A program made the translations under genes and the position numbers. The notes beneath the pieces are model-generated. The model was not told where the DNA came from. It saw only the letters and a program-made list of their open reading frames with translations, and ran no database searches. From positions 3,911 through 67,910 of the forward strand of contig JAHFOV010000003.1 in the NCBI GenBank assembly GCA_023261505.1: a DNA stretch of 64,000 nt, given 5' to 3'. Source of the stretch: Planctomycetota bacterium (lineage in GTDB: Bacteria; Planctomycetota; Brocadiia; Brocadiales; Bathyanammoxibiaceae). Positions 12,161 to 60,116 of the stretch are shown here, in pieces (position 1 is the first letter of the stretch; each line of letters begins with the position of its first letter).

Positions 12161-12174
12161 ATTAACCCTCCTCA

Positions 12175-12846: not shown

Positions 12847-12851
12847 AGCGA

Positions 12852-13092: not shown

Positions 13093-13133
13093 GCATTGAA
13101 GTAAGGGCACGCTGCAGCGTACCCCTATCACGT

Positions 13134-14690: not shown

Positions 14691-14713
14691 TGCAAAATAA
14701 AAGGGTTTTAATT

Positions 14714-14742
14714 TTGACAGCTTTATTTCTTCATGCTAACAT
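14714..14742 (+). promoter_or_regulatory. Candidate promoter TTGACA-N17-TAACAT in front of the seven-gene operon
   Basis: TTGACA at 14714-14719 and TAACAT at 14737-14742. ATG 14751 lies 9 nt after the -10 box, which implies a near-leaderless first gene. Confidence 0.35.
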
Positions 14743-14750
14743 CGCCCACC

Positions 14751-15125
14751 ATGAGCTGGATACAACAAAGTCTTAAAAGGTTCAGAGAAGAAATGCGGCA
14801 AGCCTTTGCCATGGAAGGGAGGGAAGGTCTCACCGAGGAGGAGCGTGTCTTGCTAGAACGCATGGCTCAGGCCGTAGTCCGCCGTCGTATGGCCACCCCA
14901 GCTATACTGTTCCTGGAATCCCTAATGCCACTTAGTTATATTGGGAGCCAGGTCATGCACTTCCTCAGACCTTTCATGACCTTCCTCTTCTCACAGGAAG
15001 AATACGATAGACTGTCCCAGCTCCTTGAAAGACGTTCCACCATTGAGCACCTCATAGAGGCCATAAGGAGAGTTGAAGGCGGTAATCCGCCTCGGGCGGA
15101 GTGGCGAAAAAAAGATAATGGTTGA
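14751..15125 (+). CDS. Small hypothetical protein with a hydrophobic core segment (operon gene A)
   Basis: About 124 aa, with hydrophobic ATPAILFLESLMPLSYIGSQVMHFLRPFMTFLF flanked by charged helices. Its stop overlaps the next ATG (ATGGTTGA). Confidence 0.5.
   Translation: MSWIQQSLKRFREEMRQAFAMEGREGLTEEERVLLERMAQAVVRRRMATPAILFLESLMPLSYIGSQVMHFLRPFMTFLFSQEEYDRLSQLLERRSTIEHLIEAIRRVEGGNPPRAEWRKKDNG
15086..15100. repeat. 15-nt palindrome TCCGCCTCGGGCGGA (copy 2 of 4)
   Basis: Read directly from the sequence. It lies in the last codons of gene A, 18 nt before ATG 15118. Confidence 0.7.
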
Positions 15126-16908: not shown

Positions 16909-16975
16909 ACTCTTAGGCCTTTAGAATTTATACTTTAATTCCTTTGAACTTTGAACCTTTAAACCCTTAAACTTT
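16909..16975. repeat. Degenerate 7-8-nt tandem array (CTTTGAA / CTTTAAA words)
   Basis: The sequence reads ..ggccttta gaattta tacttta attccttt gaacttt gaaccttt aaaccctt aaactttt and fills the whole B-C intergenic gap. Confidence 0.6.
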
Positions 16976-16981
16976 TTGTTT

Positions 16982-19377: not shown

Positions 19378-19392
19378 CCCAGGAGGAACAAC

Positions 19393-20046
19393 TTGATCTT
19401 CTTGCGTCGAACTTTACCTTTAGCCATAGCATTTGTTATAGGAGTGCTTATGACCTTTCAATATTTTGTCCCACATCCCTACTCCAAGGCATTCCTGGAG
19501 CTAATGACCCGCTGGGATAGGATAATTGCAGGCTTTGCGGTGTTCATAGGGGTCTACAGCCTGTTCCACCTACACTGGACCCGCATCCGTAGAAAGGCGG
19601 CAGGATGGGGTTACAGTATCTTTGTCTTCCTGGGTGCATTTATTACCATTGCCTTTGGCCTTTATAATGGCGGGGAGGCCTTCTGGCACGATAAAAAAGA
19701 GGGCACCATGTTTGATTGGCTCTTCCTTTACATTCAGGTTCCGGCAGGGGCTACCATCTTTTCCATCCTTGCCTTCTTTATGGCCTCGGCAGCCTACCGA
19801 ACCTTCAGGGCCAGGACAGTAGAATCCACTGTACTGCTGCTAGCAGCTATAATTGTCATGCTGGGAAGGGTACCTGTTGGGGCCCTCATCTCTCAGTACA
19901 TCCCTTTAGCTGCAGACTGGATTATGGGGGTGCCAAATATGGCCGCCAAGCGGGGGATACTCCTGGGCGTTAGCCTCGGCGCCATTGCCACATCTATCAA
20001 GATTATCTTAGGTGTCGAAAGACAGTATCTGGGTGGAGGAGATTAA
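19393..20046 (+). CDS. Polytopic membrane protein, about 6 TM (operon gene E)
   Basis: AGGAGG lies 6 nt upstream of TTG 19393. I read six hydrophobic segments by eye. Confidence 0.65.
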   Translation: MIFLRRTLPLAIAFVIGVLMTFQYFVPHPYSKAFLELMTRWDRIIAGFAVFIGVYSLFHLHWTRIRRKAAGWGYSIFVFLGAFITIAFGLYNGGEAFWHDKKEGTMFDWLFLYIQVPAGATIFSILAFFMASAAYRTFRARTVESTVLLLAAIIVMLGRVPVGALISQYIPLAADWIMGVPNMAAKRGILLGVSLGAIATSIKIILGVERQYLGGGD

Positions 20047-20151
20047 AAATTAAAGTTCAAAGTTTAAGAGTTCAAGTGGTTAAGGGGTTAAAAGTTCAAG
20101 AGTTAAAATGTAGCCGCAGGCTTTAGCCTGCGTTCAAGGATCAAAAGTTAA
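20047..20151. repeat. Degenerate 8-nt tandem array (AGTTCAAG words) with an embedded 7-bp GC hairpin
   Basis: The sequence reads aaagttca aagtttaag agttcaag tggttaag gggttaaa agttcaag agttaaaa. The hairpin CGCAGGC-TTTA-GCCTGCG is at 20115-20132. The word set is the reverse complement of the 16909-16975 array. Confidence 0.6.
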
Positions 20152-20982
20152 ATGCAAAGGCTACTTAATATAGATAGGCGAATAATCTTTGCAGCAGTGG
20201 GCCTGGCGGTCATAGCATCACTTATTATTAAATTCAGTCTGCCTGTGCCCGCTAGTCCTCCCGTGCAAAGAATTTATGACAAGATAGAGTCCCTGCCCGT
20301 GGGGGCTCATCTGCTAATTTCTTTTGATTACGACCCTTCTAGCAAGGAAGAGCTTCAGCCCATGGCCCTTGCCTTACTTCACCACAGCTTTCGCAAGGGG
20401 TTAAAGGTTATTGGCATGACCCATAACCCAAGTGGGACAGGGCTTGCTGAACAGGCCATGAACTCTGTTGCCTCATTGTATCAGAAGAAATACAAGGAGG
20501 ATTACGTCTTCCTGGGCTACAAACCGGGAGGGGCCTCATTGATTATGAATATGGGAGAGGATATCCATACTGCCTTCTTAAAGGATTTTTACGGCAACGA
20601 TACTACTATGCTTCCAGCATTAGAAGGCGTTGAAAGCCTCAAAGATATAGACTACTTAATTGACCTAGCAGCTGGGGTTACGATAGAGACCTGGATTGCC
20701 TTCGGGAAGGAGAAATATCAGTTTGAAATGGGAGCCGGTTGCACGGCAGTTATTGGTCCAGATATGTATCCCTATCTAGATAGTCGCCAGATAAACGGCC
20801 TCATGGCAGGGTTGAAGGGGGCTGCAGAATACGAGACTCTGGCAGAATGTAAAGCACAGGCCTTTAAGGGTATGCTCCCCCAGAGTGTGACCCATTGCCT
20901 GGTAGTCCTCTTCGTCCTTTTTGGAAATGTAGTCTTCTTTATCAGCGGCGGCTTCAGATCCAAAAGGAGACAGAGTAGATGA
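20152..20982 (+). CDS. Bitopic protein: N-terminal TM, about 210-aa soluble domain, C-terminal TM (operon gene F)
   Basis: The TMs are IIFAAVGLAVIASLIIKF and CLVVLFVLFGNVVFFISGGF. The architecture parallels the C-terminal two thirds of gene D. Confidence 0.6.
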   Translation: MQRLLNIDRRIIFAAVGLAVIASLIIKFSLPVPASPPVQRIYDKIESLPVGAHLLISFDYDPSSKEELQPMALALLHHSFRKGLKVIGMTHNPSGTGLAEQAMNSVASLYQKKYKEDYVFLGYKPGGASLIMNMGEDIHTAFLKDFYGNDTTMLPALEGVESLKDIDYLIDLAAGVTIETWIAFGKEKYQFEMGAGCTAVIGPDMYPYLDSRQINGLMAGLKGAAEYETLAECKAQAFKGMLPQSVTHCLVVLFVLFGNVVFFISGGFRSKRRQSR

Positions 20983-21731
20983 TAAACATGAAAAATAAGA
21001 GCATTGACTTCTGGATCCTAACAGGTACCCTTAGCCTCTTCGCACTGGTAAACCTACTCTTTTTCCTCCTGGGAAGGTTGAGTTTTAGCTGGGAAGGCAT
21101 TGGTACAATGATCGCCGCTGGTCTCACCCTGGCAATATACAGCTTTCTTTATAAGGATAACCCCACCTTTAAGGTGGTAGAAAATCTATACGTTGGAGTG
21201 GCTCTGGGCTATACAGTTATAATCACCTGGTTTAATGCCCTGAAACCCGACCTATATGACCCACTCCTTGTCCCCCTTTTTACAGGGAAGCATGCGCAGT
21301 ACCTTCTTCTCGTGCCCATGTTTCTCGGCATATTCATGCTCCTCAGGTTCACAAGGAGGCTTGTCTGGTTGAGCCGCTTGACATTTGCCTTTGTGATAGG
21401 GTTGGGAGCCGGAGTAACCATCCCTAATTACATCCACACCTTTATCCTCAAACAGCTAGAACCTTCCATGCGGCCTGTGTTTTATGGAGGTGAGACGCTA
21501 CTGCCAAGTATCAACACCCTACTCATCCTCCTGGGGGTTATATCCGTCCTAATTTACTTTTTCTTCTCTGTGGAGCATAAGGGTCCTGTCGGCTGGCTAT
21601 CAAGGATAGGCATTTGGTTCCTGATGATCTCTTTTGGCGCATCCTTCGGCTACACAGTTATGGGCCGTATGTCTCTCCTTATAGGTAGGGTGATATTCTT
21701 GATGAGGGATTGGTTAGGAGTAATACAGTAG
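20979..21731 (+). CDS. Polytopic membrane protein, about 7-8 TM (operon gene G)
   Basis: An ATGA overlap with gene F indicates translational coupling. The protein is hydrophobic throughout. Confidence 0.65.
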   Translation: MINMKNKSIDFWILTGTLSLFALVNLLFFLLGRLSFSWEGIGTMIAAGLTLAIYSFLYKDNPTFKVVENLYVGVALGYTVIITWFNALKPDLYDPLLVPLFTGKHAQYLLLVPMFLGIFMLLRFTRRLVWLSRLTFAFVIGLGAGVTIPNYIHTFILKQLEPSMRPVFYGGETLLPSINTLLILLGVISVLIYFFFSVEHKGPVGWLSRIGIWFLMISFGASFGYTVMGRMSLLIGRVIFLMRDWLGVIQ

Positions 21732-22104: not shown

Positions 22105-22167
22105 CTAGGGGTTAGGGAATAGGGTTTAGGGGCTAGGGATTAGGAATTAGCGAGTAGGCGGAGAGGA
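22105..22167. repeat. Nine-unit TTAGGG-type heptamer array
   Basis: ctagggg ttaggga atagggt ttagggg ctaggga ttaggaa ttagcga gtaggcg gagagga. It is inverted relative to the array at 22571-22598. Confidence 0.7.
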
Positions 22168-22570: not shown

Positions 22571-22598
22571 TCTCTAGTCCCTAACCCCTAGCCCCTAA
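22571..22598. repeat. Inverted TTAGGG-type heptamers (tctctag tccctaa cccctag cccctaa)
   Basis: This is the reverse complement of the word set at 22105-22167. It overlaps the last 6 codons of purD (..RLGARG-stop). Confidence 0.65.
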
Positions 22599-25557: not shown

Positions 25558-25569
25558 GCCTAACAACAT

Positions 25570-25625
25570 ATTACAAATTACAGATTACACATTTGGAATT
25601 TACAATTTGAAATTTGTAATTTGGT
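25570..25625. repeat. Eight-unit heptamer array (ATTWSNN)
   Basis: attacaa attacag attacac atttgga atttaca atttgaa atttgta atttggt. It lies between the convergent htrA and topA stops. Confidence 0.75.
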
Positions 25626-29341: not shown

Positions 29342-30811
29342 ATGATTACAGCAACCACTCCACAGCCAACAAAGATAAAACCGGGGAAGATGCTTATTGA
29401 TGGGAAATGGGCAGATTCTCTTTCCGGCAAGACCTTCGAGACCATTAACCCTGCTACTGGTGAGGTTATTACGAAAATAGCCGAAGGAGATAAAGAGGAC
29501 GTGGCTTTAGCAGTTAAGGCCGCCAGGAAGGCCTTTGAGGTGGGGCCGTGGCCTAAAATGGATGCAAGGGACAGGGGCAAAATCCTGGCAAAGGTGGCTG
29601 AACTCATTATGAAGAACCTGGAAGAACTTGCCGTCATGGAGACCGTGGATAGCGGCAAACCTATTACCCAAAGCCGTAAAGGGGATGTTCCTTACACGGC
29701 GGAAACCTTCTTCTATTATGCGGGCTGGCCGGACAAGATCCATGGAGAGACCATCCCTGTCAGGGGTAACTATTTCAACTATACACTTAGAGAACCTGTG
29801 GGTGTGGTAGGACAAATAATACCATGGAACTTCCCTCTAGTTTTGGCATCCTGGAAGCTAGGGCCTGCCCTGGCCTGCGGCAATACGGTGGTGCTTAAGC
29901 CCTCCAAGTTGGCGCCGCTAACTTGCCTCCGCCTTGGAGAGCTTTTTATGGAGGCGGGGCTACCTGAGGGCGTGCTTAACATACTAACTGGTTCTGGGGA
30001 GACGGTTGGTACCGCTATAGCTCAGCACCCAGGAATTGATGTGGTAGCCTTAACCGGAGAAACCATCACTGGTAAATCCATCATGCGGAACGCCGCAGAC
30101 ACACTGAAGAGGGTATCCATGGAGCTTGGCGGCAAAAGCCCTAATATAGTATTTGCCGATGCTGATATTGAGTCCGCAATAAAAGGTTCCCTCTTTGGTA
30201 TTTTTTTTAACCAGGGGGAGTGCTGCAATGCGGGCAGCAGGTTACTTTTAGAAAAGAAGCTTCACGATGAGTTCATTGAGAAGATGACTACCTTCGCCAA
30301 CAAATTGAAGGTGGGAGATACATTAGACCCCGAGACAGAGATTGGGCCTTTGATATCTCAGGGTCAGTTTAACAAGGTCATAAGATACATTGAGGAGGGG
30401 AAAAAAGAGGGCTGCAGGTTAGCCTGCGGTGGCGAACCTCTTGGTGGTAAGGGCTACTTCATAAAGCCTACCATCTTTGATAATGTGAAAAACGACATGA
30501 AGATTGCCAGGGAAGAAATCTTTGGCCCCGTGCTAGCTACCGTCACCTTTAAGGATATAGATGAAGCAATAGAGGCGGGGAATCTGAGCGACTACGGCCT
30601 AGCGGCGGGGGTATGGACCAGGGATATAAGGAAAGCGCACCTGGTGGCCCGCCGTTTAAGGGCAGGCACCGTCTGGATCAACACCTACGCCGCCTTTGAT
30701 CCTGCAAGTCCCTTCGGAGGCTACAAACAGTCTGGCTTCGGCAGGGAACAGGGCATCCACAGCCTGGAACTCTATACCCAGGTAAAAAGCGTGTGGGTGA
30801 ATCTGGAGTAA
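29342..30811 (+). CDS. NAD(P)+-dependent aldehyde dehydrogenase
   Basis: ELGGKSP, FFNQGECCNAGSR (catalytic Cys), EEIFGPV and PFGGYKQSGFGRE. GGAGG lies upstream of the ATG. Confidence 0.9.
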   Translation: MITATTPQPTKIKPGKMLIDGKWADSLSGKTFETINPATGEVITKIAEGDKEDVALAVKAARKAFEVGPWPKMDARDRGKILAKVAELIMKNLEELAVMETVDSGKPITQSRKGDVPYTAETFFYYAGWPDKIHGETIPVRGNYFNYTLREPVGVVGQIIPWNFPLVLASWKLGPALACGNTVVLKPSKLAPLTCLRLGELFMEAGLPEGVLNILTGSGETVGTAIAQHPGIDVVALTGETITGKSIMRNAADTLKRVSMELGGKSPNIVFADADIESAIKGSLFGIFFNQGECCNAGSRLLLEKKLHDEFIEKMTTFANKLKVGDTLDPETEIGPLISQGQFNKVIRYIEEGKKEGCRLACGGEPLGGKGYFIKPTIFDNVKNDMKIAREEIFGPVLATVTFKDIDEAIEAGNLSDYGLAAGVWTRDIRKAHLVARRLRAGTVWINTYAAFDPASPFGGYKQSGFGREQGIHSLELYTQVKSVWVNLE

Positions 30812-30873
30812 GAAATTCTAGGGATAGGTACTAATGTATAACCTCAAGCCCTTTAGCCTAACAGGAGAGTAAA

Positions 30874-31173
30874 ATGCCCGTTCTCAGCTTGTTTACTATG
30901 GAGATTAAACCAGAGGGATTGGGAGAATTTTTAAACGATCTCTGCGAATTTTTGCCAATAGCCAACCAGGCAAAAGGATTGCTTTCCTCAGAAATCTTTA
31001 CAAGTACGGACAACAAATACAAGTACCTCTTTGTCTCAGAGTGGGAAAGCGAGGAGGACATACAGGCCTGGCTTCTTCAGCCCGACCACAGAAGGCTGAT
31101 AGTCAAGAGTAAACAGACTTATCAGATAAGACACGTCCGCAGGCGATTCTTGGAGATACCAAAAATAAAATAG
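30874..31173 (+). CDS. ABM-domain (antibiotic biosynthesis monooxygenase-like) small protein
   Basis: 99 aa with a ferredoxin-like pattern and FVSEWESEEDIQAWLLQPDH. Confidence 0.7.
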   Translation: MPVLSLFTMEIKPEGLGEFLNDLCEFLPIANQAKGLLSSEIFTSTDNKYKYLFVSEWESEEDIQAWLLQPDHRRLIVKSKQTYQIRHVRRRFLEIPKIK

Positions 31174-31240
31174 CTTCTTTGTGCAGAACAATTTCGATGA
31201 GCCGTTGGTGATTAAGAAAATCTAAGTTTAAGATATAGGC

Positions 31241-31870
31241 ATGATAGATCCAGTACCAGTTGACACAATTATAAAAGGAATTTTAGAAGCTCCATTTGAA
31301 AGTCGTTCAGTGGAATTAAAGCCGTCTATCCCTTGGAACGACCTTAATCAGCAACAACAGCTTCAGGAAATTGTCAAATCAATCTTAGGAATGTCAAATA
31401 TAAAGGATGGTGGAAAAATAATTTTAGGTGTTAAGCAGAATCCAGATAAATCTTTTGAAATTGAAGGAATGGAAGAAAATCATTTAAAGACATACGATCA
31501 AGAGAAGATTTATCAAGATGTTAGAAATATTGGAGAACCAGAACCAAGATTTGAGATAAAGAATATGGAATATGGCGGTAAATGTTTTATTGTATTTTTA
31601 ATTCAAGAGTTTTTGTATTCTCCTATTATTTGTAGAAAGGATGGAAAAAATCTTGGAAAGGAACCCTTAGTTAAAGGGGCTTTATATATCAGAACGCACA
31701 AGCCTGAGACGAAAAAGGTAGATAATGAGACAGAAATGAGAGAGATTATTAACTTAGCTGTAGATAAAGAATTGGACCAGTTTCTAAAAAGAAAACAGCG
31801 ACTCGAGATTTCCAAAAGCTGGGAAGATGATAAAGAACAATTTTATGCAGAAATAAAAGACATCCTATGA
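31241..31870 (+). CDS. AlbA_2 (Schlafen-type divergent AAA/DNA-binding)-like domain protein
   Basis: ESRSVELKPSI..(25 aa)..ILGMSNIKDGGKIILGV fits the E..lEfK...AfaNt.GG.lliGv pattern. The gene is AT-rich. Confidence 0.5.
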   Translation: MIDPVPVDTIIKGILEAPFESRSVELKPSIPWNDLNQQQQLQEIVKSILGMSNIKDGGKIILGVKQNPDKSFEIEGMEENHLKTYDQEKIYQDVRNIGEPEPRFEIKNMEYGGKCFIVFLIQEFLYSPIICRKDGKNLGKEPLVKGALYIRTHKPETKKVDNETEMREIINLAVDKELDQFLKRKQRLEISKSWEDDKEQFYAEIKDIL

Positions 31871-32580
31871 ACCAAAAAGATAAAACCATAAACAAAATCA
31901 AATCAAAAGGATATTGGGTCATTAACATCCACCCAGAGGTTTATCAAGAAAAAAGAATTGAACAAAGAAGCAAAATTAAAGACGTTGTTCGTAATGCTGT
32001 GGTCGGTTTGCGCGGTTGGGATTATCCGCACTATTTTAGCGTTGGCGAGCATGAACCTTATATTATTGGAAACTGTATGGAAAGCTTTAAAGATTGGGAA
32101 AACCATATTGAATTTTGGAGGATGACTCAAAGCGCTAATTTTGTTCACTTACTAGCACTCAGAGAGGATTGGTCGGGTAATATCAAATATCAAAATGTTT
32201 GGGCACCTGGAGATAAGTCGACGGTGGAAAAAATACTGAGTGTGTTCAATACTTTATACACACTAACCGAAATTTTTGAATTTGCTAAACGTTTAGTGCA
32301 ACAGAACATTTTTGACCCAAATGTGGTAATTCAACTTACATTGTATGACCTTTTAGACCGTCATTTGCTTGCAGATTCATGGCCACGTATCATGCCCCAT
32401 GTTTCAAAAACATATAGCTGGCCATGGATTAATACTTATCCTGTGGAAGATATACTAAATAAAACTTATGAATTTGCTTTTGACGCTTTTAGAGACCTTA
32501 TAGACCTTTTTGGATGGGATAATCCACCCATAGATATGTTAAAAAACGAGCAACAGAAATTTGTGCAGGGAAAGATATAG
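31867..32580 (+). CDS. Hypothetical protein coupled to the AlbA_2-like gene
   Basis: ATGA overlap with the upstream gene. 237 aa, Trp-rich, with no recognisable motif. Confidence 0.5.
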   Translation: MNQKDKTINKIKSKGYWVINIHPEVYQEKRIEQRSKIKDVVRNAVVGLRGWDYPHYFSVGEHEPYIIGNCMESFKDWENHIEFWRMTQSANFVHLLALREDWSGNIKYQNVWAPGDKSTVEKILSVFNTLYTLTEIFEFAKRLVQQNIFDPNVVIQLTLYDLLDRHLLADSWPRIMPHVSKTYSWPWINTYPVEDILNKTYEFAFDAFRDLIDLFGWDNPPIDMLKNEQQKFVQGKI

Positions 32581-32775
32581 ATTATGCAAGTGGTTGAGTT
32601 ACTATTACATTCTTTTAGCACTTGCCCAATACTTTGAGAAATATATCGTTTAATAAGAAAAAGATAAATTTTTGCTTCTAAGCTACACAGTTATCTTTGA
32701 GCCACAGCCTGAGTGGGGCTACACAGTTGTAGCTGCTAAAGGATAAGGTCTTGGTGGGTCGGAAGTGCCGCTGCT

Positions 32776-34011
32776 TTAGTCTATATAATTCTTTACCATC
32801 CCGTGTTGTATTAGTACATTTGGGTTGTAATAGTATTGAGACGTTTGAAACTTTGAGGGTAGTAGGAGATACCTTCCGGGGCTACCGTCATTCCTTACAT
32901 AGAAGATAAAAGCGTAAGGGGGGAATATCCCTTCAGGGCATATCCATCCCCCGGTGTTCCATAGATTTATGTATTTTTTGCCTTTTTCTGTTTCTATAAA
33001 ACATTTCTGCCTGGAGGCCCCTATTCGGCCGCCAATATGGGTGTGACCACAGACGTAGTGAAACTCAATGTCTTGAGGGTCAGGTATAAGCTTCGGCACA
33101 TTGCACCTCTTTATAAACCAGGCAATATCTTCAGGTTCACGTTCGTCCACGCCCTGTGCGTCTATCTGATAGTACGTTCCAACATTTGAGGGCCAAATAC
33201 GGCTAGTTAAGGATTCTCTAACATTTTGATAAATCCCGTAAGGGTACAGGTAACCCCACTCCTTGATTAACCTCCATTGTCTTTTTATAAAATCTTCTTT
33301 AGCGCTGGTTCCCCAAAGCGTATAGATGATAGAATGGGCCATGGATTCAAGTTCTTCAACGTCACGGGCTTCCTTAATTCCCTTCTTGCCTCCCAGAACG
33401 AGGGAAGAGGTAAGATGGCCATGGTGGAACATATAGAAGTGATTTTTAACCTGGAAGCAGTAAAACGGATAAACCACCTTAGTATTATATGTGCTCTGGT
33501 AAGAGACAATCTTGAAGGGATTATTAGTAATAACGGAGTACTCAACATCCCACTTGCCATTCTTTTCAACAACCTTAAAGTTTGTTTTAAGACATTCGGA
33601 ATAAGGTTTGGGTTTATATTTTTCCTCTACTGCGTCGACCCAAAGTCCGTAGTCATGATTTCCTGGCACATAGACGACTGTCCCTATATCAAGCTTTGCC
33701 TTATCAAACGATTCCAATAGTGCCTTGACGTTCTCTCTCGAATCCCTGTAAGGCCCTTGTGCATCCTTACTTTCATCTAATATGAGGTCCAGGATGTCAC
33801 CCAAAAGGATAAGTTCATCAATTTTAGGCTCCTCAGTCCCTTTGTTTGAAGCTATATTCAATATAACATTGGTGAGGTCATCTATGGCATTATTGATTGG
33901 CGAGTTCAAATTTATTTTGTCTGGCGGGGCATTGTTAGGATTTTGATTGCAGAGGATGCTCGCATAAGCGCCAAGGTGCAAGTCTGAAAGGACTACCGCC
34001 TTTACCCCCAT
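32776..34011 (-). CDS. Calcineurin-like metallophosphoesterase (411 aa)
   Basis: Ordered metal-ligand motifs: VLSDLHLG (DxH), LLGDILD (GDxxD), VPGNHD (GNHD), FHHGH and CGHTHIGG (GHxH). AAGGAG lies upstream of the ATG. Confidence 0.75.
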   Translation of the reverse strand: MGVKAVVLSDLHLGAYASILCNQNPNNAPPDKINLNSPINNAIDDLTNVILNIASNKGTEEPKIDELILLGDILDLILDESKDAQGPYRDSRENVKALLESFDKAKLDIGTVVYVPGNHDYGLWVDAVEEKYKPKPYSECLKTNFKVVEKNGKWDVEYSVITNNPFKIVSYQSTYNTKVVYPFYCFQVKNHFYMFHHGHLTSSLVLGGKKGIKEARDVEELESMAHSIIYTLWGTSAKEDFIKRQWRLIKEWGYLYPYGIYQNVRESLTSRIWPSNVGTYYQIDAQGVDEREPEDIAWFIKRCNVPKLIPDPQDIEFHYVCGHTHIGGRIGASRQKCFIETEKGKKYINLWNTGGWICPEGIFPPYAFIFYVRNDGSPGRYLLLPSKFQTSQYYYNPNVLIQHGMVKNYID

Positions 34012-34123: not shown

Positions 34124-34200
34124 TGGTCACAGGTCACAAGGAACATGAAAAAGAGAAAATCTTTACTTAGTACCTGTTTCCTGTTTCCTGTCCCCTGTTG
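34124..34200. repeat. Heptamer array with inverted halves (GGTCACA... / ...CCTGTTT)
   Basis: tggtcac aggtcac aaggaac atgaaaa agagaaa atcttta cttagta cctgttt cctgttt cctgtcc cctgttg. The right half encodes the last 13 codons of fdhA. Confidence 0.7.
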
Positions 34201-36916
34201 ATACTTTTACTAATCTACCTTCTCCTACCCTCTCCACCCTTGCAGCGCAGACTTTGTACTCGGGGGTCATAGTGATGTTATCGTAGGCGCTTACGGTGAG
34301 GCGGTTGGCGGCAGCCTCGGCGTAGTGCATTGGCATCCAGATAACCCCTTCCTTTATGTCTACCACATGGGCCCTGGCCAGCACTTCTCCACGGCGAGAG
34401 ATTACCCTCACCACATCTCCATCTTGAACTCCATACATTGAGGCATCATAGGGGCTTATCTCCACAAAACATTCGGATTCCATCTGAGTGCACCCCGCAG
34501 AGCGGCGGCTCATAGTCCCCGCATTGTATTGGAAGAGGGTACGGCCTGTAGAAAGGATAAGGGGGAATTCACTGTCCGTCTTCTCTGCTGGTGGGCGGCA
34601 GGGCGGTGCATAGAACTGGCCTAATCCTCTAGCAAAGGTATCTTTGTGCAGGTACTGGGTGCCGGGATGGTCTTTAGTGGGACATGGCCACTGGATACCT
34701 ACCTTTTCTATCCTGTCGTAAGAAATGCCTCCAAAGAGGTTAGGTGCAAGAGAGGCCAGTTCGTCCCATATCTCACTGGGATGATTGTATTTCATAGGAT
34801 AACCCATCCTTGTTGCTAGCTCACATATAATCTGCCAGTCTGCCCTAGAGTTGCCTATGGGTTCCACGGCCTTTCTGACCCGCTGCACTCTCCGCTCGGA
34901 GTTGGTGAAGGTCCCGTCCTTCTCGGCGGCACTGGCTGCGGGAAGGATAACCTGGGCGTACTTTGCCGTCTCGTTCAGGAATATGTCCACTGCTACAACG
35001 AATTCCAGGTTCTTGAGTCCACTTATTATATGTTCCTGATTAGGCTGGCTCATGACAGGGTCTTCGCCCATGATGAAAAGGGCTTTAAGTTTTCCTTCAT
35101 TAGCGGCGTCAAACATCTCAGGGGACATTAGCCCCTTAATGGCGGGCAATTTAACCCCCCAGGCCTTCTCAAACTTCTCTCTTACCGCCCTGTCAGCTAC
35201 CAACTGGTATCCATGGAATTTGTCGGGTGTAGTACCCATATCTGTGGCACCCTGGACATTGTTCTGTCCTCTCAGGGGGTTCACACCTGAGCTAGGTTTT
35301 CCTATGTGCCCTGTAAGCATGGCAAGGTTGGCTATGGTGCGCACGGTTTCAGTACCGCAGACGTGCTCCGTTATTCCGAGGGTATAAAATATGGCGCCCT
35401 TATCCGCTTCGGCGTAAAGTCTTGCGGCCTCTTTAATATCCCTAGCTGGTACACCAGTTATCCTCTCGGCCTTCTCAGGGGTGATGTCTTTACAATATTC
35501 CTTAAGGGCCTCAAAGCCTTCTGTTCTATTGCGGATGAATTCCTTATCCTCCAGCCCCTCAGAGATAATGACATTCATTATGGCATTAAGGAGGATACAA
35601 TCTGTTCCTGGTCTTACCTGTAAGTGATAGTGTGCCCTCTCCGCCAGCCAGGTCTTTCTTGGGTCTACCACAATGAATTTGGCACCCCTCCGGAGGGCGG
35701 CCCGCATCTGTAGTCCTATAATAGGATGGGCCTCTGTGGGGTTGGCTCCAAGGAGGAAGAGTACATCGGCGGAGGGTATCTCCCCAATGGAATTGGTCAT
35801 AGACCCACTACCAAAGCTTGCGGCCAGACCGGCCACAGTGGGGGCGTGTCAGGTACGGGCGCACATATCCATGCTATTGGTTCCCACCACTGCACGGGCA
35901 AACTTCATCATCAAATAATTCTCTTCGTTTGTGCACCTGGCGGAACCAATGCAGGCTATGCTCTGGGAACCGTATTTTTCCTTGATTTCCAGTAATCTGG
36001 AGGCAACGAGGCTCATGGCCTCCTCCCAACTGGCCTCCTCCAATCTTCCACCTCTTCTTATCAGGGGCTCTGTGAGGCGGTCGGGATGATGGACAAAGTC
36101 GTATCCGAAGCGACCTTTTATACAGAGATTCCCATTATTGGGTACTGTGCCTACTTCTGAGGTCACTTTTACTAACTTGCCTGTATTTGTATTTACGTTC
36201 AGGAAGAGGTTACAGCCAACCCCACAATAGGCGCAGACGGTTTGCGTCTTTTTTAGCTCCCATGCCCTGCCCTTGCCTTCTGCCTGTTTTTCCCTAAGTG
36301 CCCCTACTGGACAGGTGGAAACGCACTGCCCACAGAACTCACAGGTGGTTCCCAATAGGGTATCGCCATAAGCCGGACCTACTACAGAATCGAAACCGCG
36401 GTTTATAAAGTCCAGGGCCTCAGCCTGTTCCACCTCATCACATATCCTGACACAGCGACCACAGAGGATACACTTAGAGTCATCCCTCAGTATCATGGTG
36501 TTTGGGTCTGGGACTATCCCTCTCTGCGGCTGTCTGAAGAAGCGGCTCTCTTTTATTCCATACTCATAGGCGAGGTCTTGCAGTGTACAGGTGCCACACT
36601 TATCGCAGGTCATGCAATCAAGGGGATGGTCAGAAAGGATGAGTTCCAGTATGAAACGGCGGGAATCCATGACCTTTTTGGTGTTAGTTCTGACCACCAT
36701 GCCTTCCTGTATCTCTGCGGAGCAGGCAGTCTGGAGGGTACGCGCCTTTTCCACCTCCACAAGGCATACCCTACATGCCCCAAAGGGTTTCAGCCTGGGG
36801 TCGTGGCATAGAGTGGGAATCTTTATACCTAAACGGCTAGCTACTTCTAGGATGGTCTGCCCTGGAGTGGCCTCTACTTGCCTATCATCAATAGTGAGCC
36901 TAATCTTCTGCACCAA
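34163..36916 (-). CDS. fdhA: Selenocysteine-containing formate dehydrogenase alpha subunit (NuoG-like Fe-S N-terminus plus molybdopterin domain)
   Basis: ORFs 35849..36916 and 34163..35836 are in frame across TGA (35851-35849): ..[30 protein letters not shown].., the canonical FDH Sec context. The N-terminus has 2Fe-2S (CHDPRLKPFGACRVCLVEV) and 4Fe-4S motifs. Confidence 0.9.
35804..35851 (-). promoter_or_regulatory. UGA(Sec) codon plus SECIS-like stem-loop
   Basis: Downstream RNA: lower stem CCCACU/AGUGGG (35842-35837 / 35809-35804), upper stem GUGGCC/GGCCGC with apical loop GGUCU (35830-35826). The loop begins 19 nt after the UGA. Confidence 0.65.
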
Positions 36917-54443: not shown

Positions 54444-55676
54444 ATGAGGACTAGTAGGGGCGTTCAAATTGAACGCCCACACCTAGCAATACATACTTCT
54501 CCGCCTAAGTCATTTACGTTGTTAGAGATAATAACGGTCATAGCCATCATAGCTATCCTTGGAGGAGCGATTGTACCCCTGGCCTTTCAAGACCTGAACA
54601 ATAAGAAAATAAAAGCCACAGAAAATAAGCTTTTAGAATTTAAGAGTGCAATAATAGGTAACCCCTTCTTTGTTGATGGCGAAGTAAGAACCTCTTTTGG
54701 ATACTTGGGGGACATGGGGAATCTACCCGGCAGATTAGAAGATCTTTATATAAAAGGCACACAGCCAAGTTATACATATAACGCGGCGCTGAAAACGGGA
54801 GCTGGTTGGCGCGGGCCATATCTAGACCCTAAGATTCTTGAGGATCTGACCGCCGTAAAACTGGATGGTTACGGCAAGGAACTAGCATATACCACTACAG
54901 AATTCATTGATGCACAAATAGGGGCATCCGTAACGGGAGAAGTCATCAGCTTTGGCCCAGACCGTGAAATGGGTGGAATAGATGACCTTAGCGTGGAGGT
55001 CTTCCGCTCAGAGGTCTTTTCTACAGTCTCTGGTTACGTTAAAGATATGGAAGGGAAAAGGGTGCCAGGAATTACGGTAAGAATGAATTCCCCTATAAAT
55101 GGCCTCCTCGTACAGTCCATCGCTACAACCAACGACGCAGGTTTCTTTAGCTTTACCAACACCCCCTACGGAATCCGCAGCATCACTTTAGAACCGAGGC
55201 TGGTGTATGCCCCGGACAGTGCCAAGACTGCTGGAGATGCACAGGATAACCTTGAGTTTAAAATAACTAATCTTTATTCTCAGAATCTGAGTATAAACTC
55301 CATAATAGTAAACTTCAGTTTATTTCCAGAGGCCTATTTCAGCGAGTTGTGGATTGCCGGACAGCGGGTCTTTAACGCCTCCGCTCAGCGAGCAAGGAGT
55401 GGACAGCTTATAAACTATACTCCAGTTACCATCAGCGGCAGTGGAGCCACCCCTTCGGGGCAGAGCCATGTTATCCAGGTTCAATCCCCCCAGACACAGC
55501 TTGGTGATTTCAGCCTGGAAAACGTTGCTGCTGGAGGTACGGTAAGTTTAGAGATAAGAGGCTTCAAGGATCGTCCTACAAGCGGGGGTGATAACCCAGT
55601 AAATGTGAGTGGCACTACTTTTGAAATTTCCTTCAGCGATGGTTCAACAATCATTTTTACCCCTACCAGGCACTAG
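54444..55676 (+). CDS. Giant GspG-like pseudopilin paralog 1 (N-terminal pilin helix, GspG-like head, CarboxypepD_reg-like domain, unknown C-terminal domain)
   Basis: ..PPKS-FTLLEIITVIAIIAILGGAIVP, GWRGPYL, VSGYVKDMEGKRVPGITVRM...TTNDAGFFSFTNTPYG, and a C-terminal ..TFEISFSDGSTIIFTP. Confidence 0.75.
   Translation: MRTSRGVQIERPHLAIHTSPPKSFTLLEIITVIAIIAILGGAIVPLAFQDLNNKKIKATENKLLEFKSAIIGNPFFVDGEVRTSFGYLGDMGNLPGRLEDLYIKGTQPSYTYNAALKTGAGWRGPYLDPKILEDLTAVKLDGYGKELAYTTTEFIDAQIGASVTGEVISFGPDREMGGIDDLSVEVFRSEVFSTVSGYVKDMEGKRVPGITVRMNSPINGLLVQSIATTNDAGFFSFTNTPYGIRSITLEPRLVYAPDSAKTAGDAQDNLEFKITNLYSQNLSINSIIVNFSLFPEAYFSELWIAGQRVFNASAQRARSGQLINYTPVTISGSGATPSGQSHVIQVQSPQTQLGDFSLENVAAGGTVSLEIRGFKDRPTSGGDNPVNVSGTTFEISFSDGSTIIFTPTRH
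54458..54478. repeat. Perfect 21-nt palindrome GGGCGTTCAA-A-TTGAACGCCC
   Basis: Read directly from the sequence. It lies 28 nt after the SRPBCC stop, inside the nominal leader of pseudopilin 1. Confidence 0.7.
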
Positions 55677-55677
55677 G

Positions 55678-56835
55678 ATGAGACAAAGGGGCTTTACTCT
55701 TATAGATGTAATAATTATCCTGGCAGTGACAGGCATCCTGGCCAGCGGCATGGTCACCTTCGTTTTCCAGGCCGTAAATAAAGAGCGAGAAGATAAGACT
55801 ATTGAACACCTGAATCGTTTGAAGGTGGTGGTAACTGGCAAGCCCCTTAGCATGCGCCATGGAGAACAAACGTCTTTCGGTTACTTTGGTGATATGGGGG
55901 GTCTGCCTTCTCAATTGGCTGACTTATATGTCAGTGGCACGCAACCGATCTACACTTTCTTCCCCTCCCTTAAGGCAGGGGCTGGTTGGAATGGGCCTTA
56001 TCTTGACCCAGAAATAGTTGAATACATTACTAACCTAGATAAGGACTGTTTTGGTAGGGATCTCCAGTATTCTACTACCCCCTTTGTGGACGCTACTGTA
56101 GGGGAGACAGTGGAAGGCATGATTATCAGCCTGGGAAAGGATGGTAAGCCCGGTACAGGTGACGACCTTTCAGTAGAATTTTTTACCAACGAACTGTATT
56201 CCAGCGTCTCAGGCTTTATTAAGGACATAGACGGTAAAGGTATAGGTAGTGTTACTGTGACAATTAATTACCCCAGTAATGGCACCCTCACTAGCTTTAT
56301 AGCAATTACGGATGCAGATGGTTTCTATAGCTTTAACCGCGTTCCTTCCGGCAATCACAGTTTGAGCCTTACCCCTGGGCTTATTCTGGCCTCAGGCAGT
56401 GGCCGTACCCTGGAGAATGGGACTATAGTTGCCTTTTCTATAGTTAACACTTCAACCAATAGCGTTACTATAAGCGCCTTTCGTGCCATATATAACGTTA
56501 ACCCTCCTGCCTTCTACCAGAGGGTCAGTATAGGTGGGGCATCAGTCTTTAACAGGCCCAACCCAATGGTGGCCAGTGGTGAGACAATATCTTTCCCTCC
56601 AATAACTCTGCCAGGAGCTCCTGGCACTCTCGAAGCAGTTCCTATCCGTGTCCGGTCTCCTGTTACAGAGGTTCCAGATATTTTTCCGAACAATCTGGGT
56701 AGAGGCCAAACTATTGAAGTAAGGATCGAACATTTTAATAATACCCAAAACGGCTCAGGCGGCGATGCAAATATGCGTGGTATACCTTTTGAGATAACCT
56801 TCAGTGACGGTTCTATAGTTACTTTCACCCCGTGA
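55678..56835 (+). CDS. Giant GspG-like pseudopilin paralog 2
   Basis: MRQRG-FTLIDVIIILAVTGILASGMV, GWNGPYL, VSGFIKDIDGKGIGSVTV...TDADGFYSFNRVPSG, ..PFEITFSDGSIVTFTP. ATG 55678 lies 1 nt after the paralog-1 stop. Confidence 0.8.
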   Translation: MRQRGFTLIDVIIILAVTGILASGMVTFVFQAVNKEREDKTIEHLNRLKVVVTGKPLSMRHGEQTSFGYFGDMGGLPSQLADLYVSGTQPIYTFFPSLKAGAGWNGPYLDPEIVEYITNLDKDCFGRDLQYSTTPFVDATVGETVEGMIISLGKDGKPGTGDDLSVEFFTNELYSSVSGFIKDIDGKGIGSVTVTINYPSNGTLTSFIAITDADGFYSFNRVPSGNHSLSLTPGLILASGSGRTLENGTIVAFSIVNTSTNSVTISAFRAIYNVNPPAFYQRVSIGGASVFNRPNPMVASGETISFPPITLPGAPGTLEAVPIRVRSPVTEVPDIFPNNLGRGQTIEVRIEHFNNTQNGSGGDANMRGIPFEITFSDGSIVTFTP

Positions 56836-56983
56836 GGCTTTGAGGTATATGCATTCTGAAAAAAAGCTACATGTTAAAAAACATAGGACTAGACCCATCG
56901 GCCTGTACGATACGATCCAACTTAAACGAATTCAAAATTCTCTCACAGTGAATCTATCCGTCTCTGACGGAGGCGTCCTATCC

Positions 56984-58156
56984 TTGCACTCATATTCTAT
57001 TGGATTCACAATCCTGGAGATTATTATGGTACTAGCAATATTAGGTGTTCTAGCTGGTGCTATTACTCCTGTAGCTTTACACGTGACGCGGCAAAAGAAG
57101 GAGCTTGCTACCAGCGAAGAACTGCAGACCCTAAAAAAGGCAATAATAGGAAACACGCAATCCATTCAATTTGGTGCGGAGCCCACCTTTGGGTATATTA
57201 AAGATATTGGTAGTCTTCCACAAAACCTTCAAGACCTGTACATTCAGCCTACTGGAATACCCTCTTTTTCCTTTAACAGCACCTTGGGAATAGGTTCCGG
57301 CTGGAGGGGACCCTATGTAGCAAAAAAGGCCTATGCCAGCGTCACAGACTTTATTCAGGACCCATACGGAAGACCTTATGCCTATTCTACCGCTAGTGCT
57401 ATTAATACTACCCTGGGTGTAGAAGTGAGAGGCACCATAAAAAGTCTGGGCAGTGACGGCATCGACGATACCCAGGATGACCTCACTATAGAGATCTTTA
57501 AACCAGAGATCCTAGCCGATGTGGCAGGTAAGGTAAGGGATGTCAGTGGTATTGGTGTATCTACTGTTTACGTGACTATCTATTATCCCAGGGATGGTAC
57601 CCTTACCTCCTCCACTACCCAAACAGACCTGGAGGGGAGGTATCAATTCTCCAATATACCCATTGGAGAGAGGGCCATTACCCTTCAACCAGGACTCGTT
57701 TTTATCCCAGGAACGGCCTTTGCCAAAGGTACTACACAAACAGAGGTGGGGTTTTCTGTGGCCAACCTATCTACCAACGCTATTACCGTCTCCTCCATTA
57801 CCACTTATTATGATACCATGCCGCCCGCCTACTATCGTAGAGTAAGGATTAACGGAAGCATCCTCAGGGATGCCCTTCCAGGGATAGGTACCGGTGAGGT
57901 AGCGAGTTTTGCACCCTTGGTTGTTGTCCCAAGTACTTTACAGAGGGAAGCATTCCACTTCCTGCTCAGGTCTGCCAGTATGGAAATCCCCGATATGGAA
58001 CTAAACACCATAGGGGCTGGCGGCGTAATGACAGTAGAACTAGAAGACTTTACTACTGTCAGGACAGGGGGTTCTCCCGTGGATATGGCAGGGGTTCCTT
58101 TTACTGTAATCTTCAGTAATGGGTCAACAGTTTCATTTACCCCTCAGAGGCAGTAA
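56984..58156 (+). CDS. Giant GspG-like pseudopilin paralog 3
   Basis: TTG 56984 gives the leader MHSYSIG-FTILEIIMVLAILGVLAGAI and has GGAGG 10 nt upstream. ATG 56849 is the alternative and would add 45 aa. Also GWRGPYV, VAGKVRDVSGIGVSTVYV...TDLEGRYQFSNIPIG and ..PFTVIFSNGSTVSFTP. Confidence 0.75.
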   Translation: MHSYSIGFTILEIIMVLAILGVLAGAITPVALHVTRQKKELATSEELQTLKKAIIGNTQSIQFGAEPTFGYIKDIGSLPQNLQDLYIQPTGIPSFSFNSTLGIGSGWRGPYVAKKAYASVTDFIQDPYGRPYAYSTASAINTTLGVEVRGTIKSLGSDGIDDTQDDLTIEIFKPEILADVAGKVRDVSGIGVSTVYVTIYYPRDGTLTSSTTQTDLEGRYQFSNIPIGERAITLQPGLVFIPGTAFAKGTTQTEVGFSVANLSTNAITVSSITTYYDTMPPAYYRRVRINGSILRDALPGIGTGEVASFAPLVVVPSTLQREAFHFLLRSASMEIPDMELNTIGAGGVMTVELEDFTTVRTGGSPVDMAGVPFTVIFSNGSTVSFTPQRQ

Positions 58157-58160
58157 CAGT

Positions 58161-59408
58161 ATGCAACATACCGTAGACAGTAGGCAGGAAAAAAATTCCT
58201 ATATTCTTTCTACTATCTACTGTCTACTACCTACTTTCTACTGTCTACTTAATAAAGGGGGCTTCACTCTTCTTACAGTAATTATAATCCTCACCCTAAT
58301 GGGGGTAGCCGCCGGCATAGCCACTACCTTTATAGGTAAGATTCTAACCGAACGCCGCGAGCTGACTACTGAAGAGGAATTGATGGCCTTAAAGGAGGCA
58401 ATAATTGGTAATCCCAGTCATAAACAAGACAAGAATAATTTTGGGTACCTTGGTAACATGGGAAATCTTCCTGTCACACTGCAAGACCTTTATATGAGAG
58501 GTGACCAACCAGGGTACATCCTGGACCCTGTGGCCCGACTGGGGGCAGGATGGGCAGGTCCTTACATTACACCCCTCCTCAGGGAGGAGCTTTCCAGTCT
58601 TCTTACGGATGCCTTTGGTAACATTTACGAGTATACGACAACTGAATACATCCGTGCGGATGGAGAGATTGTCTCGGCAAGGATACTGAGCTACGGCGAT
58701 GACAAGAAGCCCGGAACGGAAGACGATAAAGAGGTAGAAATTCTACGTAGGGAGATTTATTCCACTGTGTCGGGGTTTGTTACGGATTCAGCAGGAACGC
58801 CCATAGGTGGGGCACCAGTTACTTTGTACTATCCTTATAGAGGCAGCGTCCATAGTCTTAGCATAACTACCAATGTTGAGGGTCTTTTCCAGTTTACAAA
58901 CGTCCCAAATGGTATCAGAACCGTTAAAGCCGCGGGGGGTGGCCTCAGGTATGTTGAAGGTTCGGCACTGGCCACGGGGGAAAATAAGGACAACCTAACC
59001 TTTAAGATAACCAATTGGGGAGAAGGTGCTGTAACTTTAAATTCGATAAGATTGGTGTTCACTCTTTCACCAGCCTATTACGAGGAAGTTTATGTAGGAA
59101 GTACCAGGGTATTCAATTATCTTGATTTCAATGGCCAGAGAGGAACGAGCAACAGATTAATAAACTTTTCTGATACTACAATTCCCGGGGGTGAAAGTGT
59201 AAACATCACAAGGGTTCCAATAAATTCTGATAATATTCTCTTACCCAATATTGTCTTATACCCAAGGGGGGGTACCTTGCTTATCAAGTATGTTAACTTC
59301 AAGAACGATGTCTCCGGGCCTTCCAGCCCTGTTTCTGTTTATGGCGCCAGCTTCACAGTAACCTTTAGCAACGGCTCTCAGTTCTCTTTTATCGCTCAGA
59401 CGCCGTAA
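58161..59408 (+). CDS. Giant GspG-like pseudopilin paralog 4
   Basis: ..LNKGG-FTLLTVIIILTLMGVAAGIA, GWAGPYI, VSGFVTDSAGTPIGGAPV...TNVEGLFQFTNVPNG, ..SFTVTFSNGSQFSFIA. The only canonical start is ATG 58161, which gives a 34-aa leader that includes the heptamer array. Confidence 0.75.
   Translation: MQHTVDSRQEKNSYILSTIYCLLPTFYCLLNKGGFTLLTVIIILTLMGVAAGIATTFIGKILTERRELTTEEELMALKEAIIGNPSHKQDKNNFGYLGNMGNLPVTLQDLYMRGDQPGYILDPVARLGAGWAGPYITPLLREELSSLLTDAFGNIYEYTTTEYIRADGEIVSARILSYGDDKKPGTEDDKEVEILRREIYSTVSGFVTDSAGTPIGGAPVTLYYPYRGSVHSLSITTNVEGLFQFTNVPNGIRTVKAAGGGLRYVEGSALATGENKDNLTFKITNWGEGAVTLNSIRLVFTLSPAYYEEVYVGSTRVFNYLDFNGQRGTSNRLINFSDTTIPGGESVNITRVPINSDNILLPNIVLYPRGGTLLIKYVNFKNDVSGPSSPVSVYGASFTVTFSNGSQFSFIAQTP
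58171..58252. repeat. Heptamer array (TACTNNC x6) with an upstream complementary arm
   Basis: ttctttc tactatc tactgtc tactacc tactttc tactgtc tacttaa. GTAGACAGTAG (58173-58183) is complementary to the two CTACTGTCTAC copies. Confidence 0.7.
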
Positions 59409-59411
59409 GAT

Positions 59412-60116
59412 TCAGGGGCGTATTGAAATAGGCCCTACCTCATTGAAGAAGGAAACCACCTCTTTAGCGATCTCTTTTTCACTGCCAATATAGAAATGGC
59501 TTACATTAGTTTTGACAGTTAGCCTTTTTGGCTCAGAAAATTTTTCAAAATTGCGTCGTACGTCCTCTACATTTGTAGCAAAATCACAGTCGGAACATAT
59601 AAAGAGCTTGGGTTTCTTACAATAAGAGAGACAATTTAAATTATATATCCCAACAGGGGTAGCTATCCCTGCAATGGCGATAACGCCGTCGTCATCGGCC
59701 CCCAGCCTCATCGCCATCACCGCTCCAAAAGAGTAACCCGCTAAAAACAATCTTAGGGTCTTTACGCTACTAGCAAAGGTTTTCAGAAAGGAAAGGGCAG
59801 ATCTGGTATCTTCTAGCGCTCCCTCCAGATTCCCCTCCCCGAAGGTGCTCTCCCAGTAGTGGAATCTCTCAGCCACATCCTTAAAGGAACCTTCACTTCC
59901 CCCAACCCCACGATAGTTAAACCTAAGGGTAACGTAGCCCCTCTCACTCAACTCCTGAGCCAGGGCGACAATGACGTTATTATTCATGTCACCGCCAAGA
60001 TTGGGATGCGGGGAACACAGCAGGACCATAGGAGGGGCTACTAAACTCTCCTCATAACTTAACACCCCTTCCAATTGCATTCTATCCGAACTAAAGTGAA
60101 CTATTTCATCTATCAT
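59412..60116 (-). CDS. Alpha/beta-fold hydrolase
   Basis: Nucleophile elbow LAGYSFGAV (GxSxG) and an HPNLGGDM oxyanion-region-like segment. 234 aa. Confidence 0.7.
   Translation of the reverse strand: MIDEIVHFSSDRMQLEGVLSYEESLVAPPMVLLCSPHPNLGGDMNNNVIVALAQELSERGYVTLRFNYRGVGGSEGSFKDVAERFHYWESTFGEGNLEGALEDTRSALSFLKTFASSVKTLRLFLAGYSFGAVMAMRLGADDDGVIAIAGIATPVGIYNLNCLSYCKKPKLFICSDCDFATNVEDVRRNFEKFSEPKRLTVKTNVSHFYIGSEKEIAKEVVSFFNEVGPISIRP

Follow-up and report, generated by a model that had tools for sequence, protein, structure and literature searches.

What are four large pilin-like proteins, encoded side by side, doing in a stretch of genome that encodes no machine to assemble them? The question is raised by positions 54444-59408 (+) of the window (the whole stretch of DNA that was analysed, 64,000 nucleotides from contig JAHFOV010000003.1 of a Planctomycetota bacterium of the Brocadiales), where four tandem open reading frames (ORFs) encode paralogous pilin-like proteins of 385-435 amino acids (aa). 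An earlier note, made from the letters of this DNA, proposed that they are giant major pseudopilins that could decorate a fibre, and laid weight on the missing assembly machinery. We consider it on balance probable that the quartet is a modular set of minor pilins, which forms the priming or tip complex of an MSHA-like type IV (type IVa) filament.

Gene boundaries were taken from the public gene calls for the contig together with a reading of the start-codon context (Table 1). The four called genes are adjacent or nearly so, with a spacing of 1-12 nt (the ATG of gene #2 lies 1 nt past the stop codon of gene #1). The earlier note had placed the four consecutive genes correctly and had judged them rightly to be about three times the usual pilin size, while the range of 385-429 aa given there extends to 435 aa. 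Two starts are to be read with care: an internal GTG at 56948 is also possible for gene #3, and gene #4 encodes 429 aa if its start is taken at 58119 (its 99% identical homologue P0001 has 415 aa). Judging from their pairwise identity of 35-39% across almost the full length, and from BLASTP matches such as #1 with #4 (E = 3e-71) and #2 with #3 (E = 7e-91), the four proteins are true paralogues. Public records name proteins of this family only as "carboxypeptidase regulatory-like domain-containing protein." A promoter and terminator scan gave a result no better than that from shuffled sequence.

All four N-termini are type IV pilin-like, with about 20 hydrophobic residues after the cleavage motif, but only #1 and #3 are strictly of the FTLLE type that had been ascribed to all of them. 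The curated cut-off of Pfam N_methyl is reached by #2 only (22.2 bits vs. 21.2) and that of TIGR02532 by #3 only (18.1 vs. 16.3), while #1, which has Ser at position -1, and #4, which lacks the glutamate at position 5 (Glu5), score below both. The profile of the whole family matches the N-terminal (alpha1) helices of solved type IV pilins in the PDB at E = 1e-7 to 5e-4 (Geobacter PilA-N, 1e-7; M. xanthus PilA, 8e-5; GspG, 5wda, 5e-4), and as a set the proteins carry the class III signal peptide of the type IV pilin superfamily, whose marks are a short polar leader, Gly at -1, Phe1, Glu5, and a hydrophobic stretch of about 20 residues. Thus the N-termini do match pilin profiles, a failure of which the earlier note had named as grounds for giving up its reading. 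The several sub-threshold N_methyl scores and the atypical -1 residue of #1 would suit a quite different explanation, in which the pilin-like N-terminus is a mere membrane anchor or export signal of non-filament proteins, comparable with the archaeal sugar-binding proteins that have class III signals. We regard this as very improbable, because the likeness to pilins does not end with the helix: the whole GspG-type head is conserved.

This GspG-like head, which the earlier note had recognized, was aligned by hhalign with the ordinary pilins of about 200 aa found in related loci, tested representatives of which match T2SSG and N_methyl. The alignment (98.4% probability, E = 4.9e-15) spans 147 columns of helix plus head and includes the motifs W.GPY, D.(F/W)GN.Y and S.G.D..GT.DD. 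The Pfam T2SSG profile (PF08334) itself matches #2-#4 below threshold (E = 0.008-0.02, 15.3-16.6 bits vs. 21; E = 0.008 for #4) and gave no match to #1. On the alignment, we take the likeness of the head to T2SSG-type pilins as real homology. The proteins are not GspG as such, since the TIGR01710 equivalog scores 16.5-37.4 bits, mostly from the N-terminus, against a cut-off of 88.85, and GspG has one domain, measures about 140 aa, and shares a gsp operon with GspC-M, while these proteins have three domains and no gsp gene was seen in the window. A head of the major-pseudopilin type in all four proteins is what would be expected if the four were major subunits that copolymerise into a thick heteropolymeric fibre with two extra domains per subunit; it would also suit the tip of a periplasmic, type II secretion-like pseudopilus (a piston), in which the beta-sandwiches engage a specific secreted cargo. 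For reasons given below, we consider the former unlikely, and give the latter an equally low probability.

The head is followed by a CarboxypepD_reg-like beta-sandwich and then by a C-terminal beta-sandwich, and this three-domain plan is shared by all four proteins. The middle domain, which the earlier note had named correctly, matches PF13620 in all four (E = 1.6e-9 to 2e-5); it exceeds the gathering threshold of 32.3 bits in #4 only (38.4 bits, E = 1.6e-9, residues 216-295, i.e., to about 59003), with 28.9, 31.6, and 25.2 bits in #1, #2, and #3 (E = 2e-7 to 2e-5). The proteins thus have the layout of modular pilins, a pilin module followed by a PF13620 domain and a further beta-sandwich. In the AlphaFold prediction for #4 (overall predicted local distance difference test, pLDDT, 80.6), a long N-terminal helix (residues 51-96) and a small alpha/beta head, predicted with pLDDT 75-90 and arranged as in pilins, precede the two beta-sandwiches.

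The C-terminal domain is common to the four paralogues and to the whole family. It had been described as unassigned and about 170 aa long; Pfam and PDB sequence searches indeed gave no match, and its length is nearer to 150 aa. In isolation it is predicted confidently by AlphaFold as a beta-sandwich (pLDDT 89, predicted template modelling score 0.82). Foldseek found nothing in the PDB at E <= 1e-3 for this domain; its weak top matches, to be taken as a lead only, are beta-sandwiches of archaeal type IV pilins and FlaF (E about 1e-2, template modelling (TM) score 0.3-0.43). The whole #4 model retrieved only generic tandem beta-sandwiches from the PDB (SpaD, alpha-2-macroglobulin, DUF3823), at an uninformative TM score below 0.25. 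In P0014, a class-4-like protein of 536 aa, a second copy of the C-terminal domain follows a Pro/Thr-rich linker, which indicates that this domain is an independent, duplicable module.

The quartet is not peculiar to this genome. An exhaustive profile search gave 347 cluster representatives at E <= 1e-30; among the best 150 matches, each of which stands for a cluster at 50% identity, about 90 have the family length (roughly 370-500 aa), and the rest are mostly very long proteins matched via repeated CarboxypepD_reg-type stretches, together with fragments. A word-indexed homologue search, which gave just 12-16 matches, badly underestimates the family. Inspection of gene neighbourhoods, together with a survey of genome contigs that was seeded with class-4 orthologues only and is therefore narrow in taxonomic coverage, showed tandem quartets in Brocadiia (loci L001/L007, L002-L004, labelled Ca. 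Tripitaka californicus, L005, L021, and L022), in Acidobacteriota (Terriglobia, Solibacteraceae, Ca. Sulfopaludibacter; L010, L011, with two arrays, L013, and L014) and in L023, a locus of the Acidobacteria type. Four genes per operon, as in core minor pilin sets, are thus present here and in at least nine other locus types. Within each phylum the genes are reciprocal best matches by position (1-1, 2-2, 3-3, 4-4); across phyla the best matches are mostly 4-4, and 2-2 and 3-3 agree in part. This positional orthology means that the quadruplication is old or that the cassette moves as a unit, and in either case the four copies are not interchangeable. Some arrays look damaged: gene #1 of L014 (6000-7422) is split into two ORFs, and the array of L012 (12369-14111) breaks off within its third gene, after which comes a 404-aa ORF that is unrelated and may represent an insertion.

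The copies also differ at position 5, which is Glu in #1, Asp in #2, Glu in #3, and Thr in #4. All class-4 proteins that are well assigned have another residue there (T, S, A, G, or V), while Glu5 is present in 78 of the 87 proteins of classes 1-3 in which the motif was found. The same pattern is seen in L023, whose class-4 protein has S5, and the last gene of the operons of a high-GC lineage (GC, guanine plus cytosine; see below) has Q5. In the core of type IV filaments, the N-terminal amine of each subunit is neutralised by Glu5 of its neighbour (type IV filament literature), and the core minor pilins assemble into a complex at the tip, with a subunit that lacks Glu5 as its cap (PMC10191384). 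The last gene of the quartet shares this property, and we therefore predict that #4 is the cap subunit, of the GspK/PilX type. Such a position-specific pattern is not expected of proteins that merely borrow a pilin-like anchor. It also bears on the copolymer of major subunits, since class 4 always lacks the residue that docks subunits in the filament body, although the other three proteins do keep Glu5 or Asp5. Moreover, four strictly ordered subfamilies fit a complex of fixed stoichiometry better than a shaft. Heteropolymeric pili with two major pilins are known (PMC10628169), and no ordinary major pilin gene adjoins the cassette in Brocadiia; on the other hand, ordinary pilins of about 200 aa lie beside it in Acidobacteriota and in the high-GC lineage, and the published view places bulky modular pilins at tips (PMC8179133). 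A tip or priming complex is therefore favoured over giant major subunits, the reading of the earlier note, because of the fixed number of four, the positional orthology, the last subunit without Glu5, and the ordinary pilins alongside in other lineages.

Relatives of the cassette adjoin secretin, ATPase, platform, or prepilin peptidase genes in other lineages, which speaks against the weight given to the absence of such genes here. In the high-GC lineage (L018, L019/L020; 73-75% GC) the operon consists of one 197-aa GspG-like pilin gene followed by three family members, and in L018/L019 it is flanked on both sides by machinery blocks. One block encodes an MshL-like secretin (E = 2.6e-62), an ExeA-like AAA ATPase, a TPR/SLT protein, a histidine kinase, a sigma-54 response regulator, and two more pilins; the other comprises three unannotated genes (one small, with a weak T2SSB match), a GspF/PilC platform gene, and a GspE/PilB ATPase gene whose product bears the MshE-type motif for binding of cyclic di-GMP (c-di-GMP). 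The L023 cassette is surrounded by a Peptidase_A24 gene, a PAS-HisKA kinase and a sigma-54 response regulator (a PilS/PilR-like pair), five ordinary pilin genes, and a gene for a large CarboxypepD_reg/TIG protein, and the same pilin cluster is found in L010 and L014. Such recurring association with pilin and peptidase genes and with a complete machine again speaks against non-filament proteins. No HIJK-type minor pilin gene and no PilY1 were seen in the Acidobacteria-type and high-GC pilin clusters.

The same loci bear on the secretion pseudopilus. Its support, besides the GspG-like head, is that the ATPase and platform of L018 score slightly higher against GspE/GspF than against PilB/PilC, and that a secreted-type protein of about 1036 aa with CarboxypepD_reg and IPT/TIG domains is encoded after the pilin cluster in Acidobacteria-type loci. 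Nevertheless, the secretin is closest to MshL, the ATPase has the c-di-GMP domain of MshE, the cassette is surrounded by several pilins and a PilS/PilR-like pair, as is typical of pili, and genes for GspC, L, and M were not seen. The protein of about 1036 aa (L014 11911-15021; L023 15815-18931) might serve as a partner or cargo, or as a tip protein like PilY1. Two further features of the Acidobacteria-type pilin clusters are a conserved opposite-strand gene of about 600 aa just upstream of the cassette, which encodes a fused guanylate/adenylate cyclase and Ser/Thr kinase where it was scanned (L010 and L023), and a sigma-54 response regulator gene within the cluster in L010 and L023. They suggest nucleotide second-messenger control of these pili.

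In Brocadiia the cassette stands alone, with neighbours that vary by lineage. In the window, Pfam scans of 54 ORFs of at least 130 aa returned housekeeping and respiratory genes only, with no secretin, T2SSE, T2SSF, or Peptidase_A24, and a six-frame motif scan revealed no further pilin N-terminus; the earlier note was thus right that no assembly machinery lies in the window. Minor-pilin operons usually lie apart from machinery genes, and the Brocadiia cassette acts as an autonomous operon; its machinery would have to be encoded elsewhere in the genome. In L001 (Ca. Brocadiia JP1), a Tad-like locus (TadZ/ParA, T2SSE, two T2SSF, and a TPR protein; 15900-21320, -) begins some 4.6 kb past the cassette on the downstream side; as the other loci do not have it, we judged its position coincidental.

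The priming or tip complex that we favour would work as follows. Each protein would be inserted into the inner membrane by its hydrophobic alpha1 helix, and its leader would be cut by a prepilin peptidase. The four alpha1 helices and GspG-like heads would then stack as one (the first) helical turn, with #4, which lacks Glu5, on top as the cap. Because major pilins would be added beneath, the complex would end at the filament tip, from which two beta-sandwiches per subunit, eight in total, would project. By analogy, these eight modules are probably an adhesive or ligand-binding end, in place of PilY1 or other tip adhesins; modular pilins in general are probably exposed at the tip (PMC8179133).

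Several observations weigh against this complex. None of the four proteins resembles GspH, I, J, K or PilV, W, X beyond the N-terminal helix, and all four share one type of GspG-like head, whereas the subunits of known tip complexes differ in structure. At position -1, #1 has Ser, and its counterparts in other Brocadiia have Ala, instead of Gly. For #1, #3, and #4 the starts are uncertain, and long leaders of 23-52 aa are predicted. Across the five locus types of Brocadiia, no machinery, ordinary pilin, or peptidase gene was seen within 10 kb of the cassette, an absence that would also suit non-filament proteins. Finally, it is analogy that points to an adhesive role of the beta-sandwiches.

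How does the quartet compare with known systems? The GspH-I-J-K and PilH-I-J-K (FimU-PilV-PilW-PilX) sets likewise comprise four pilin genes per operon, often apart from the machinery, and include one capping subunit without Glu5, as does the last gene here; these sets prime assembly and end at the tip (PMC10191384). They differ from the quartet in that they are four structurally different small pilins, while the quartet consists of paralogues with one three-domain plan and GspG-like heads. Consistent with this, the GspH profile scores 17-22 bits against a cut-off of 80, through the N-terminal helix only, GspK scores 10.5 against 130, and the GspI and GspJ profiles gave no match to the four proteins. 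In PilA-PilB-PilC of Streptococcus sanguinis, as proposed for the quartet, modules are grafted on minor pilins, HIJK are replaced, and adhesive domains are placed at the tip; that system has three subunits, two of them modular (vWA and lectin), in a monoderm, while the quartet has four, all with the same pair of beta-sandwiches, in diderms. CofB and TcpB, the initiator minor pilins of type IVb pili, also add two beta-rich domains, one a beta-repeat and the other a beta-sandwich, to a pilin module, and are predicted to occupy the tip and to initiate assembly (PMC8179133; PMC5207764). Each of these is a single gene product that forms a homotrimer, unlike the four genes here, and no sequence or fold match to them was detected. 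In cyanobacteria, an extra beta-solenoid domain ("tip plug") of the minor pilin PilX has been proposed to replace PilY1 (bioRxiv 10.64898/2026.02.12.705559); those minor-pilin sets act as priming complexes, as is proposed for the quartet, but only the PilX-type subunit is enlarged there, and with a different fold.

The earlier note had also held that its idea would fall if this fusion proved to be a common, characterised family. Modular pilins combining IPR012902 with PF13620, i.e., an N-terminal pilin motif followed by a CarboxypepD_reg-like domain as in the quartet, have already been catalogued (Raynaud et al., 2021, PMC8179133), although not characterised. That database survey does not include the third domain, the four-gene cassette, or the Glu5 pattern, and most members of the quartet family fall below the Pfam thresholds. 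Our literature search found no description of an ordered paralogous quartet, of its last member without Glu5, of the C-terminal domain, or of the distribution over Brocadiia, Acidobacteriota, and the high-GC lineage. The fusion of a pilin with PF13620 is therefore known, while the paralogous quartet and its C-terminal domain are undescribed.

A bolder version of the tip complex, which we offer tentatively as a possibility, is that the quartet is a self-sufficient, PilY1-independent tip machine that replaces both the H-I-J-K minor pilins and the tip adhesin, that it marks an unrecognised class of MSHA-like pilus, and that its eight beta-sandwich domains form a ligand-binding crown. If so, such a machine would be common to Brocadiia, Acidobacteriota, and other uncultured lineages, and the weak fold likeness of the crown domain to the beta-sandwiches of archaeal pilins and FlaF might reflect real ancestry.

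Table 1. Coordinates of the quartet genes, of the domains of gene #4, and of repeat arrays and a conserved gene in related loci (a slash marks the predicted cleavage site)
Feature	Locus	Coordinates	Strand	Remarks
Gene #1, class-1 subunit	Window	54444-55676	+	410 aa; predicted 23-aa leader; PKS/FTLLE; GspG-like head, CarboxypepD_reg-like domain, C-terminal beta-sandwich
Gene #2, class-2 subunit	Window	55678-56835	+	385 aa; short leader, MRQRG/FTLID (Asp5)
Gene #3, class-3 subunit	Window	56849-58156	+	435 aa from ATG 56849; IG/FTILE (Glu5)
Gene #4, class-4 subunit	Window	58161-59408	+	415 aa; GG/FTLLT (Thr5, no Glu5)
Gene #4, mature alpha1 helix	Window	58263-58406	+	Residues 49-96 of the 429-aa ORF; AlphaFold helix 51-96
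Gene #4, GspG-like head	Window	58407-58757	+	..FGYLGNMGNLP..GAGWAGPY..DAFGNIYEY..SYGDDKKPGTEDD..
Gene #4, CarboxypepD_reg-like beta-sandwich core	Window	58758-58931	+	PF13620; AlphaFold strands
Gene #4, C-terminal beta-sandwich	Window	58932-59405	+	Unannotated; ends ..ASFTVTFSNGSQFSF..
Leader heptanucleotide array	Window	58209-58249		TCTACTA x 5.9, higher-order period 21; within leader-coding part of gene #4
Leader heptamer arrays	L009	372-434, 464-489, 1942-2014		
Leader heptamer arrays	L008	43-111, 1340-1445		
Leader heptamer array	L005	4779-4831		
Leader heptamer arrays	L002	8605-8675, 9908-9934		
Intergenic heptamer arrays	Window	1856-1905; 22106-22158 with 22574-22597; 25566-25624; 34173-34199		
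Intergenic heptamer arrays	L002	1801-1885; 2816-2886; 4183-4334		
Gene of about 600 aa	L010	3761-5596	-	
Gene of about 600 aa	L014	3025-4839	-	
Gene of about 600 aa	L023	6479-8284	-	
Gene of about 600 aa	L012	7195-9000	-	

In every Brocadiia cassette, gene #3, gene #4, or both carry heptamer arrays downstream of the start codon and ahead of the cleavage site (Table 1), and the heptamers vary by lineage (TCTACTA, TCAGCAG, CAGCAAT, CGGAGTT, and others). Since 7 is not divisible by 3, gain or loss of repeat copies would put the cap subunit out of frame, and phase variation could result. We did not adopt this idea for the gene #4 array, as heptamer arrays are common in intergenic regions of these genomes. 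The intergenic arrays are often paired and look reverse-complementary (GACTATA beside TAGTCTA), could form hairpins, and recall the STRR elements of cyanobacteria.

As the earlier note had described, LptD and SRPBCC protein genes flank the quartet upstream, and multihaem cytochrome genes lie downstream, followed by cytochrome b genes past the end of the window; an alpha/beta-hydrolase gene (59412-60116, -), left unmentioned there, comes before the cytochromes. A link to the cytochrome cluster was rejected, since this synteny is found only in the close relatives L005, L021, and L022 and is missing from L001, L002, and all Acidobacteriota loci. Elsewhere in the window, a molybdopterin oxidoreductase of the formate dehydrogenase alpha type (34163-36916, -) is encoded by two in-frame ORFs separated by a single TGA, whose context (..CART-TGA-HAPTVAG..) matches the classical selenocysteine site of FdhA; it is probably a selenoprotein, not a pseudogene. 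A cluster at 11105-19377 encodes a MreB/actin-like protein, a PF13941 "MutL"-type protein (E = 2e-126), a DUF6754 protein (E = 2e-118), and several ORFs without a Pfam match, and possibly represents a cytoskeletal or membrane system that is as yet uncharacterised. At 30000-34000 the GC content drops (0.41 vs. about 0.46) around a Schlafen/AlbA_2-domain gene (31241-31870), an unannotated ORF, and a large metallophosphoesterase gene; this stretch may be an acquired or defence islet.

Minor-pilin tip complexes govern both the onset of type IV filament growth and the ligands that the filament binds. Known tip complexes are made of four dissimilar small pilins, often with a separate adhesin. If our reading is true, the quartet is a different solution, in which duplication of a single modular pilin gave rise to four specialised copies in a set order; one became a cap without Glu5, and each bears two surface modules of its own. 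For annotation, a new domain some 150 residues long is now defined. The quartet would also give a first handle on pilus biology in the hard-to-grow subsurface Brocadiia, which are related to anammox bacteria, and in soil Acidobacteriota, in both of which attachment and aggregation matter for ecology and reactor performance.

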